A DNA stretch of 64,000 bases. It comes from a virus. Its lineage: Duplodnaviria > Caudoviricetes. Under the pieces are notes generated by a model. The model did no database searches. It saw only the letters and a list, made by a program, of their open reading frames with translations, and had not been told where the DNA came from. Both the position numbers and the translations under genes were made by a program. This document shows positions 60,959 to 64,000 of the stretch, in pieces. Numbering within the stretch: position 1 is the first letter of the stretch; every line of letters begins with the position of its first letter. The DNA lies in the IMG/VR virus record IMGVR_UViG_3300015615_000196, positions 298,604 to 362,603 of that record; one strand, 5' to 3'.

Positions 60959-61852
60959 ATGGGACGACCTAAAAAGGTAGTTACCGATGACAAGTCAGTC
61001 ACGGAACTAAAAATCAACGCCATTCCCAACATCAGGGAATTCACAATCAAAGAACTACGTAAAGTAGAAGTACCAACTTTCCAACGATGGATAGTTGAAA
61101 AAAACAAAGTTCAACTTGGCCAATCAATTTTAGATGTCGGCATGTTAAGATGCCCGGTAATTTTCTTCATTAAATCGAAGAAAGCATACCAAATTATCGA
61201 TGGTAATCACATGAGAGAGATTATTACTGATAAAACAAATCCGAATTACAAAGACGCAGATAAAATTTCTTGCATATATCAAGAAGTTGAAACCGAAACT
61301 GAATCGGCCAATGCGTTTAAAATGCTTAATACGAAAGGTAAGCAATTAGATTGGGTTGATATTACTAATCTTTACATGTTCACTAAAGACGGTGATAATG
61401 TTTATAAAGATATTTGGATTTTATTGGGGAATCCAAAAAATCTAAATGAGGTTAGACCACCGAAAGGCTTTAGTGTACCTACCATCGTTGAAGTCATTGC
61501 TGGCGATAAAGGTAAATATCGGAATGGTAATGGCGAATTTGAACAACCGCGCCAACCACGTAAGCAACTACTTAGTTATCTTATGGCATATGCAAATGAT
61601 CATTGGAATCGATCAATTGGTATTGATGGTGCACGACCCAATGGAGCATCGATCATTGGATTTGCCAACTACTGGTTTAGAGAACAGCACCACAAAAATT
61701 TTGGCGAAGCAGATTTTCTTGATTTAATCACTGAAATTTTTGTGCAAAAAAGTAGTCAGTTGGAATCCGGTGAATTAGTTATCAACAGGGAAAATGCAGG
61801 AAAATTGCTTCATAAATTAATGCAGCAAAAATTCCAACCAGAAAACGTTTAA
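60959..61852 (+). CDS. ParB/Srx-like N-terminal domain protein
   Basis: PTFQRW, SIL..G..CPV, YQIIDGNH, F..LN..GK; AT-rich; own terminator. Confidence 0.6.
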   Translation: MGRPKKVVTDDKSVTELKINAIPNIREFTIKELRKVEVPTFQRWIVEKNKVQLGQSILDVGMLRCPVIFFIKSKKAYQIIDGNHMREIITDKTNPNYKDADKISCIYQEVETETESANAFKMLNTKGKQLDWVDITNLYMFTKDGDNVYKDIWILLGNPKNLNEVRPPKGFSVPTIVEVIAGDKGKYRNGNGEFEQPRQPRKQLLSYLMAYANDHWNRSIGIDGARPNGASIIGFANYWFREQHHKNFGEADFLDLITEIFVQKSSQLESGELVINRENAGKLLHKLMQQKFQPENV

Positions 61853-61858
61853 TATTTT

Positions 61859-61886
61859 GCCCCCCATCAGAAATGGTGGGGGGTTT
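61859..61886 (+). terminator. intrinsic terminator
   Basis: GCCCCCCATCA-GAAA-TGGTGGGGGGT followed by TT. Confidence 0.7.
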
Positions 61887-62055
61887 AAGACTTAAAATAA
61901 ATTATGGACAAGGTTGAAATGTTATTCGCAGACATCTTAAAATGGACTTTGATCGTATTGGTCATTGCCTTTGTTGTCTGTGTGGTAGTGTAAGTTTTTA
62001 CTGTTACTACCAAATCAATAGTTATTCGTGCAGTCTACCTAAACACAACAAAAAA

Positions 62056-63447
62056 ATGAATCAGAATTTTACATTCGTCAGAAAAATCAAGTTGGGTATT
62101 ATTAATGACACCAAAGAAGGTAAAAATGCTGATTATGAAAGAATGAGAAGCATCCAGTATCATAGCTGGAAACTTGCCAATCGAATAGTACAAGGTCAAT
62201 TCTTCTTACGATTCTTTCCCGAAGTGATACTTTTTAAACACCCCGATACTTATGAACTATACAAAGAGATACAAGGTAGAATAACCAAGATCAGTCAGAT
62301 TAAAAAGAAAACGGATTTGGACAAGGCAGAACTGAAATCCTGCTATGCCCAAATTAAAGACATTCAGAAACAGTTCGAGATTGAAATCGAAGAATACCGT
62401 AGAAATGGGTCAATCCAGAATTTCACGTATGCATTCAACGCTGACGAATACCGTGATCTTATTCCATCTACGGTTCGTGCATCATTGAATCAAAAGGTAT
62501 TCAAAGATTTCAATACCAGATATAAAAACTTCTTGCAAGGTAATGCATCAATTCAAACGTACAAGAAAACGTTGGCCGTCCCTTTTCAAGGGAAAAGTAT
62601 TATTGATCTAAAATTAGAAAAGGAAGGGTTTACTTTTAATTTATTTGGAATTAAGTTCCTGTGCTTGCTTGGTAAGGATGGAAATAATACCAAACACATT
62701 CTCACCCACTTGACAAATAAAACCGATGAATTCAAACTCAATGATTCATCATTCATGTTTAAGGACGGGGAATTGTTCATGAATATGAACTTATCCTCGA
62801 ACGTGGTGAAGGTAAAGAAAAACCCGAATATTGTTGCGGGTATCGATCTTGGTGTTAGTCGCATGGCTACGATGGTCATTCGTGACCGTTCCTCCGATTC
62901 CTCCACCAATTATATCGAACGTAGATTCTTCGGGGATGATTCGTTAATGAAACGTGCGATGTTCTACCAGAACAAAAGATCAAATGTTAATCGTAGCTAC
63001 CTGACCAAAACAGGAAAAGGAAGACTTCATGCAGTTAAATCAAAAAATCAGAATCTTGATAAGTTCGCAAGATTTCGCGATAACTTCAATAAAAAGATTG
63101 CTCATGATATAATACAAAGATGCATTGCAAACAACGTATCGGTTATCGTAATGGAGGATTTAAGTAAAATCGGAGAACTTAATTTCTTTATGAAGAATTG
63201 GCCTTATTTTGATCTTCAAACCAAGATTGAAAACAAAGCCAAAGAATATGGAATTAAGGTTGAGTATGTTGACCCCGCATATACCTCACAAACATGTCCT
63301 GCTTGTGGACATGTGGGTAAAGAAAACAGGGAGATTCAAAAGCACTTTGAATGTAAATCCTGTGGTGTGAAGGGTAATGCTGATGTAATCGGAGCCATAA
63401 ATATTGCCAACAAAATTCCGATTGAATCATTGCAAGTCTCAGTTTAA
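62056..63447 (+). CDS. cas12f: Cas12f-like / TnpB-family RNA-guided nuclease (~463 aa; start reassigned to ATG 62056)
   Basis: RuvC-I AGIDLG, RuvC-II VIVMEDL, WPYFDLQTKIENKA..YGI.V..VDPAYTSQTCPACG, CKSCG zinc ribbon, RuvC-III NADVIGAINIA; directly upstream of a CRISPR array. Confidence 0.85.
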   Translation: MNQNFTFVRKIKLGIINDTKEGKNADYERMRSIQYHSWKLANRIVQGQFFLRFFPEVILFKHPDTYELYKEIQGRITKISQIKKKTDLDKAELKSCYAQIKDIQKQFEIEIEEYRRNGSIQNFTYAFNADEYRDLIPSTVRASLNQKVFKDFNTRYKNFLQGNASIQTYKKTLAVPFQGKSIIDLKLEKEGFTFNLFGIKFLCLLGKDGNNTKHILTHLTNKTDEFKLNDSSFMFKDGELFMNMNLSSNVVKVKKNPNIVAGIDLGVSRMATMVIRDRSSDSSTNYIERRFFGDDSLMKRAMFYQNKRSNVNRSYLTKTGKGRLHAVKSKNQNLDKFARFRDNFNKKIAHDIIQRCIANNVSVIVMEDLSKIGELNFFMKNWPYFDLQTKIENKAKEYGIKVEYVDPAYTSQTCPACGHVGKENREIQKHFECKSCGVKGNADVIGAINIANKIPIESLQVSV

Positions 63448-63499
63448 TTCTGTTATTTTGTTTTAAGAAAATTCGTTCATTGAAATATTATTTTATCCT

Positions 63500-63650
63500 C
63501 TTACCAATTTGGTACGAGAATAAAAAGCGTTAGTTGTGTTTAAATACTCCCGCTTATGGGATGAAACGCAAAGGTGAGGTTGTAACATTGAATAATTATC
63601 TACTATTGTGGTAGATGTTATAACACTCGCTAATACCTTTTTAATTTTTA
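63500..63650 (+). ncRNA. putative tracrRNA
   Basis: Anti-repeat TACCTTTTTAATTT (63634-63647) pairs 13 of 14 with repeat nt 15-28 (two G-U pairs); GTTGTG (63533-63538) complements the repeat 3' end CACAAC; intervening stems. Boundaries approximate. Confidence 0.65.
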
Positions 63651-63697
63651 AAATTGAGTTGAAACGCTCAGATATTCAGAGGATTAATTCAGATTGA

Positions 63698-63996
63698 GTT
63701 GTTGATCTATTGAATTTGAAAGGTAGTCACAACATCGACTATACGTTGACATCCGTGTTAGTGGTTGTTGATCTATTGAATTTGAAAGGTAGTCACAACT
63801 TGACCTTGTTGTTCAAACTAAAGTCAAATGTTGTTGATCTATTGAATTTGAAAGGTAGTCACAACGAGCGTATCAGTATCCATACAGCAATGAAGTTGTT
63901 GATCTATTGAATTTGAAAGGTAGTCACAACTGGATCAATATAGGTCGTTAGGAAAAACATGTTGTTGATCTATTGAATTTGAAAGGTAGTCACAAC
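63698..63996 (+). CRISPR. CRISPR array: 5 identical 36-nt repeats and 4 complete spacers, likely continuing past the window
   Basis: Repeat GTTGTTGATCTATTGAATTTGAAAGGTAGTCACAAC at 63698, 63764, 63830, 63895 and 63961; unique spacers of 30, 30, 29 and 30 nt. Confidence 0.98.
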
Positions 63997-64000
63997 ACAT

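Follow-up and report, generated by a model that had tools for sequence, protein, structure and literature searches.

Does the DNA between the cas12f-like gene of a giant phage and the CRISPR array downstream of it encode the tracrRNA through which that nuclease would use the array? The locus lies in the window, the 64-kb stretch of DNA analysed here, which is the final part of a 362,603-bp IMG/VR virus record. An earlier note had proposed at this place a candidate tracrRNA with a split anti-repeat of Cas12f-like architecture. The region encodes a structured RNA that is conserved along with the cas12f gene. Judging by sequence comparison, we consider it very probable that window 63491/63525 to approximately 63650 (+ strand) encodes a phage type V-F (Cas12f) tracrRNA with a split anti-repeat. 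The earlier proposal is supported by covariation, by conserved anti-repeats, by an order of parts shared with the Al3Cas12f and Cas12f-MG119-3 guides, and by three natural fusions in the same genome.

The cas12f locus and its array

All parts of the locus are on the + strand, in the order cas12f (stop codon at 63447), RNA core (63525-63647) and array (from 63698). The leader between the tracrRNA and the first repeat (63648-63697, + strand) is 50 nt long and differs in sequence from its counterparts in L009 and L013, two of the orthologous loci described below. No consensus terminator was found between scaffold and array, and no consensus promoter stands out, with one 9/12 promoter-like match at 63463-63491. 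Adaptation genes were not found among the ORFs inspected around the locus, nor a tnpA-like ORF among those inspected near it, where transposon ends were likewise not seen. The cas12f-tracrRNA-array block is flanked by two genes, at window 60959-61852 and at L001:898-1527 (L001 holds the start of the record), that both look ParB/DUF262-like; there is a weak GmrSD_N match on one side, and a match to phrog_1583 with a DGKQR-type motif on the other.

The effector gene (62056-63447, + strand) encodes a 463-aa protein, P0001, recognized by Pfam, NCBIfam and solved-structure matches. Against Pfam it matches Cas12f1-like_TNB (1e-23) as well as OrfB_IS605, and against NCBIfam guided_TnpB (5e-52). The solved structures that it matches best are all of Cas12f: 8hr5 (6e-36), OsCas12f 9nzq (4e-33) and Al3Cas12f 9nzo (3e-32, with an alignment spanning residues 17-437), the names of the latter two structures following PMC13186708. 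Among short chains whose only label is ‘Transposase’, the best (8iaz, 384 aa) scores E-9, and LaTranC (PDB 9jfo) only 2e-4. P0001 is thus what a Cas12f effector should be, within 400-700 aa, TnpB-like, and with a RuvC D-E-D triad and a C-terminal zinc ribbon; RuvC residues D264/E367/D443 and zinc-ribbon residues C414/C417/C433/C436 are invariant across eight homologs. The phage-encoded Cas12p (‘hacker’) was considered as the effector family and rejected, at an E-value of only 0.04. A protein-pattern scan of IMG/VR with P0001 returned zero relatives.

The window holds the first five of 18 repeat cores of the array (63698-64000, + strand; 36-nt repeat, period approximately 66), which continues at the start of the record. 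The final 48 bases of record and window recur as the first 48 of the record, which shows that it is circularly permuted and was cut inside the array; the count of 18 combines the window end and the record start. The array degenerates towards its far end, which places the leader on the cas12f side. The distal repeats diverge in nt 1-15 only, and the units at L001:310-356 and L001:600-642 are without the 5′ half of the repeat, their last 18-21 bases remaining. Across the array nt 16-36 are kept, including in units that have lost nt 1-15 or diverged there. Orphan repeat 3′ ends (AGGTAATCACAA[TC]) occur just past the window end, in the record start, at L001:886-898 and L001:1522-1534. They flank a 209-aa DUF262-like ORF (phrog_1583), and each adjoins a start codon, so that the last array units seem to have gene starts in the place of ‘spacers’.

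Searches for targets of the spacers were negative. The array had no blastn match in 50,697 GenBank phage records, and spacer 1 had no exact match in IMG/VR. A 20-mer of spacer 2 matched three contigs, which were rejected as protospacers: the remaining 10 nt are unrelated there, so the match is attributed to chance. With no protospacer for the spacers tried, no PAM can be derived. A search for orthologous arrays through the 3′ part of the repeat gave a single chance match, in coding DNA.

Structure and conservation of the RNA

A protein search found one homolog 84% identical (protein only) and six at 53-59% identity. The latter six lie on metagenomic contigs L009-L014 and together with the window make seven orthologous loci. 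The six contigs end 98-363 nt past the gene, presumably at assembly breaks caused by the array. They break inside the first repeat, whose 3′ end thus falls outside the comparison; in L009 and L013 the start of the repeat is visible after the scaffold. In all six related loci the element follows directly after the stop codon of the gene.

The elements that the earlier note had listed were all found on the + strand at the coordinates it gave. Upstream of the core lies a conserved motif of 16-18 nt, GTTC[AT]TTGAAATA[TC]TA (63473-63490, + strand), which is present in all seven orthologous loci and might be a promoter element, an operator or a 5′ segment of the RNA. It has a single exact copy in the 362-kb genome, on which ground a general phage promoter was rejected, and is missing from the three single-guide paralogs described below; its counterpart in L013 directly adjoins the RNA core. 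‘Head-to-toe’ pairing has been proposed for SpCas12f1 (PMC12255294), and the motif was tried as such a partner of the repeat or of the tail and rejected, no pairing being consistent across three loci.

The motif is followed by stem 1, a variable 5′ hairpin (63491-63525, + strand) formed by a 17-nt inverted repeat that is 88% complementary. In six of the seven orthologous loci, the window included, this position is taken by a hairpin (z -3.2 to -4.6) whose sequence is unrelated from one locus to the next; L013 and the paralogs are without it. Next comes the putative pseudoknot domain (63527-63569, + strand), whose closing stem GCGTT/AACGC (63527-63531/63565-63569) encloses a nested TCCC/GGGA hairpin (63548-63551/63558-63561) and, at 63533-63538 (+ strand), the 6-mer GUUGUG, here called anti-repeat 2. 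Among the orthologs GCGTT, GTTGTG, the 4-bp hairpin and AACGC form a near-invariant block. The closing stem is paired in 7/7 sequences, with C-G changed to U-G in two, and the nested hairpin shows compensatory change in two of its four pairs.

A long kinked stem (63573-63631, + strand) follows, with arms at 63573-63586/63617-63631 and a distal hairpin, ATCTAC/GTAGAT, at 63598-63603/63611-63616. Its base, GAGG/CACTC (CACUC in the RNA), is fixed among the orthologs and its interior wholly different between loci; compensatory changes affect 8/14 basal and 4/6 distal pairs. The TAATACCTTTTT segment is present in the orthologs wherever the contig extends far enough. After the long stem stands anti-repeat 1, UACCUUUU... 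(63634-63647, + strand), whose UACCUUUUU core is conserved in L009 and L013.

Covariation was assessed in the four orthologous sequences covering the core. For these RNAalifold reports compensatory change in 14/32 pairs. In a 29-pair structure, 95.7% of cells were paired, versus 79.8% after shuffling and 28-43% in slid registers; 14 pairs had double changes, versus 4.7 after shuffling, and the observed values were reached by 0/500 shuffles. With the three paralogs added (seven sequences), 97.0% of cells were paired, versus 81.5% shuffled and 30-46% in slid registers, and there were 31 compensatory cells, versus 8.7 shuffled (0/500), with compensatory change in 14/29 pairs.

Exact scans with the conserved 16-mer gave 12 stretches in IMG/VR and at least 120 in the JGI metagenomes, and after filtering the element occurred in these collections only in loci already known. 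Searching window 61000-64000 against Rfam 15 at E <= 1 gave no match, which is weak evidence, a family for this Cas12f clade being perhaps absent from it. Two 45-150-kb phage-like contigs carry approximately 30% identical Cas12f-like genes with recognisable scaffolds beside the gene (L157:2600-2960 and L158:4333-4589); the L158 scaffold has an Os/MG119-1-like GAGAAG...CACUCGG stem, and L157 has a three-repeat mini-array upstream.

Pairing with the repeat and fused copies in the same genome

The split anti-repeat consists of two complementarities. The claim that GTTGTG complements the final CACAAC of the repeat is exact, the 6-mer being the reverse complement of repeat nt 31-36, beside the spacer. 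It had also been described as unpaired inside the GCGTT/AACGC stem. Its position in the loop stands, but its GUG has an alternative partner, a downstream CAC/UAC with which it can make a local 3-bp helix, so that ‘unpaired’ holds for the complexed RNA and not necessarily for the free RNA. Complementarity of the 3′ segment to repeat nt 15-28 holds at 13 of 14 positions (11 Watson-Crick and two G-U pairs) and fails at one mismatch; since only the first eight pairs are contiguous, the word ‘complementary’ was slightly generous.

Co-folding, a check that the earlier note had named, went only part of the way. RNAcofold recovers the anti-repeat 1 duplex in all three cofolds, but an energy scan does not single out the site. 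The proposed inter-RNA duplexes are weak and AU-rich, at only -9.2 and -5.4 kcal/mol. In the vicinity of the locus the repeat pairs most strongly with antisense sequence within the cas12f ORF, at 62468-62507 (-22 kcal/mol) and 62588-62637 (-21 kcal/mol). These thermodynamically strongest anti-repeat candidates were rejected as chance, because duplexes with the repeat of -22 kcal/mol or below occur in 166 of 72,122 genome windows of 40 nt, two of them antisense to cas12f. Duplex energy therefore does not discriminate the site, and the case rests on position, conservation and covariation.

Covariation across homologous loci, the other check, likewise divides: the intramolecular stems covary and the inter-RNA pairs are invariant. 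GUUGUG is identical in 10/10 scaffold copies (seven orthologous loci and three paralogs). As neither it nor the UACCUUU core ever varies, the inter-RNA pairs show conservation without covariation.

Position was weighed against chance by shuffling the repeat 100,000 times at matched composition. A 6-mer complementary to the repeat end lay within the loop for 0.98% of the shuffled repeats, and a run of at least eight pairs just after the long stem, in the register adjoining the last six bases, for 1.1%; both matches occurred together in 22/100,000 (2.2e-4). The array had been said to be tied to the nuclease through this RNA, and the low joint probability agrees with that, as does the recurrence of the gene-scaffold-array order in the orthologs. 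Transcription of the + strand, also claimed earlier, fits the orientation of the scaffold, the presence of cas12f on the same strand and the decay of the far-end repeats.

A covariance model built from the orthologs only was run on the phage genome. Besides the window copy (143 bits) it found three further full-length copies at 110-115 bits: L148 (record 155009-155135, - strand), L149 (160743-160872, - strand) and L150 (226610-226734, + strand). In all three, a closed 6-7-bp hairpin stands right after the terminal CACUCGCUAA of the long stem, in place of the single-stranded anti-repeat. The hairpin is followed by a 1-3-nt linker, CACAAC and then the adjacent DNA; one copy has CAUAAC instead, which could still pair with GUUGUG via G-U. 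In two copies a gene starts 1-3 nt downstream, encoding in one case a 434-aa protein without a PHROG match and in the other PhoH; in the third an 86-aa ORF begins 31 nt downstream.

By their sequence the three copies look like a tracrRNA fused to the 3′ part of the repeat, that is, natural single guides with the adjacent DNA as the guide. The direct sgRNA design that the earlier note had drawn from the locus gains from them, as all three keep hairpin, linker and CACAAC/CAUAAC in the proposed register. Gene starts are likewise adjoined by the terminal array units and the two orphan repeat ends. At window 62035-62058, CACAAC and an A-run precede the cas12f ATG, which recalls the layout of CACAAC followed by a gene start in the single-guide cassettes; the covariance model found no scaffold upstream of cas12f, and this CACAAC may be chance.

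One enzyme is reportedly known, from work on TranC, to use both split and unsplit guides. Something of the kind may hold here, a suggestion on which we are evenly divided: one phage Cas12f may use a split tracrRNA with a crRNA array and, on the same scaffold, three unsplit omega-RNA-like single guides, with guide segments that come from genes of the phage itself, phoH among them, either from their starts or from upstream of them. A giant phage would then be using, against relatives without the inserts, a system that still stands midway between the homing guides of transposons and CRISPR immunity.

Known guides and alternative readings

Tested sgRNAs of Al3Cas12f (structure 9NZO), Al1/Al2Cas12f and Cas12f-MG119-3 are given in Supplementary Data 1 of PMC13186708. 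In all of these a 5′ hairpin, a hairpin with a GUUGGA loop, a GAGG...CACUC stem and a 3′ anti-repeat follow one another, the long stem having an internal loop on its 5′ side and a distal hairpin (PMC13186708). The window RNA has the same order of parts. At the same position in both, the loop 6-mer is complementary to the last six bases of the repeat, GUUGUG to CACAAC here and GUUGGA to UCCAAC in Al3/MG119-3, the latter match being read off the sgRNA sequences. The GAGG/CACUC stem base is common to the window RNA and the validated Al3, MG119 and Rh Cas12f sgRNAs, while OsCas12f has GAGA.

There are also differences from Al3/MG119-3. The crRNA linker between the paired parts is 2 nt here and 1 nt there; the window 6-mer lies in a larger loop with a nested 4-bp hairpin, rather than in a simple hairpin loop; and the 3′ duplex is AU-rich with G-U pairs and a mismatch, unlike theirs. 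The present locus is in a 362-kb phage, and theirs are in bacteria; the phage genome also carries three fused single-guide copies. Their guides are experimentally tested; that of the window is a prediction from sequence.

The core would be common to more distant systems too. A pseudoknot with the 3′ end of the repeat is general among Cas12 tracrRNAs, and the conserved Cas12f core, comprising stem 1, this pseudoknot and stem 2, is common to TnpB reRNA (PMC12255294; bioRxiv 10.1101/2025.01.20.633832). The guides of Un1, As, Sp, Cn, Os and Rh Cas12f (PMC12255294; 8hr5, 9nzq, 9nzp, 7l48, 7c7l) have this core, which the window RNA would share, and a repeat:anti-repeat stem at the tracrRNA 3′ end and, like the window RNA, are long relative to a small effector. 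They have extra stems (4-5 in all) that are missing here as in Al3Cas12f, and the window effector is only roughly 25-35% identical to their proteins. The TnpB omega-RNA or reRNA (PMC10097598) has a scaffold core homologous in design to the window RNA, and the in-genome paralogs resemble omega-RNAs in being unsplit with adjacent DNA as guide. The window RNA itself is split, ending in the anti-repeat and followed by leader and array, unlike a TnpB omega-RNA at the right end of a transposon, and the locus does not conform to the definition of an IS200/IS605 TnpB omega-RNA. Huge phages with type V-F/Cas14 systems have been described before (PMC7162821; PMC12607003), and the window locus shares with them a compact TnpB-like effector and an array in a phage genome of >200 kb. 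The main texts of those two papers mention tracrRNA 0 times, in contrast to the covariation-supported tracrRNA of the window locus. The window RNA is an ordinary though well-supported new example of a Cas12f tracrRNA.

Three other readings of the region have to be weighed. The scaffold could be the 5′ part of one long transcript running into the array, in which case it would for the most part serve the first repeat, in cis, like a built-in single guide, and the others poorly or not at all. Both the 50 nt that separate scaffold from array, with no terminator, and the fused single-guide forms in the same genome lend this some credit. We nevertheless think it unlikely: selection appears to preserve the pairing part, nt 16-36, in the 18 repeat units, which is sensible only if all are used, via pairing in trans or processing of the scaffold, and validated relatives of this Cas12f use separate tracrRNAs (PMC13186708). 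Co-transcription followed by processing would, moreover, still give a functional tracrRNA.

The element could instead be the omega-RNA (reRNA) remnant of a TnpB-type IS200/IS605, with the array unrelated (e.g. of a host type VI-B or II-C system) and the complementarity coincidental. The top score of the protein is indeed to the general guided_TnpB model, the GTTG...CAAC repeat ends are common in Bacteroidota arrays, and the single-guide paralogs resemble omega-RNAs. Those same paralogs, however, end in a linker and CACAAC as the repeat 3′ end does, and coincidence would have to supply both in-register complementarities, at approximately 2e-4 jointly. The gene-scaffold-array order recurs in the orthologs, with the repeat start visible in L009 and L013; solved Cas12f structures match the protein at E-36 to E-32, versus E-9 for the ‘Transposase’ 8iaz; and the ORFs near the array include no cas13 or cas9. 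Taken together these make a remnant very unlikely. We judge it slightly less probable still that the region is a structured regulatory leader, whether a cas12f 3′ UTR, an array promoter or an attenuator, without a guide role. The conserved motif at 63473-63490 would suit such a leader, but three further genome copies fused to CACAAC and a gene start would be unexpected of it, and so would the order of parts common to tested Cas12f sgRNAs.

On the tracrRNA reading, which we prefer, the RNA would be transcribed from the + strand and fold into stem 1, the stem with the GUUGUG loop, the long kinked stem and a single-stranded 3′ tail. The tail would pair with nt 15-28 of each 36-nt repeat and GUUGUG with its last six bases, forming a pseudoknot beside the spacer. 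By analogy, the 463-aa Cas12f would bind the duplexed RNA as an (asymmetric) homodimer, and spacer-matching DNA would be cut at the RuvC site; here we infer cleavage, PAM, processing and RNA ends.

Array, RNA and nuclease would thereby make up a complete, adaptation-free system of type V-F within the 362-kb phage, with the tracrRNA fixing the direction of transcription. A guide could be designed from the core (63525-63647) joined to repeat nt 15-36, or after the shorter natural hairpin versions; the natural fused copies also offer an evolutionary control on the importance of individual repeat bases. Should one enzyme indeed use split and unsplit guides side by side, this would bear on the origin of type V CRISPR from TnpB.
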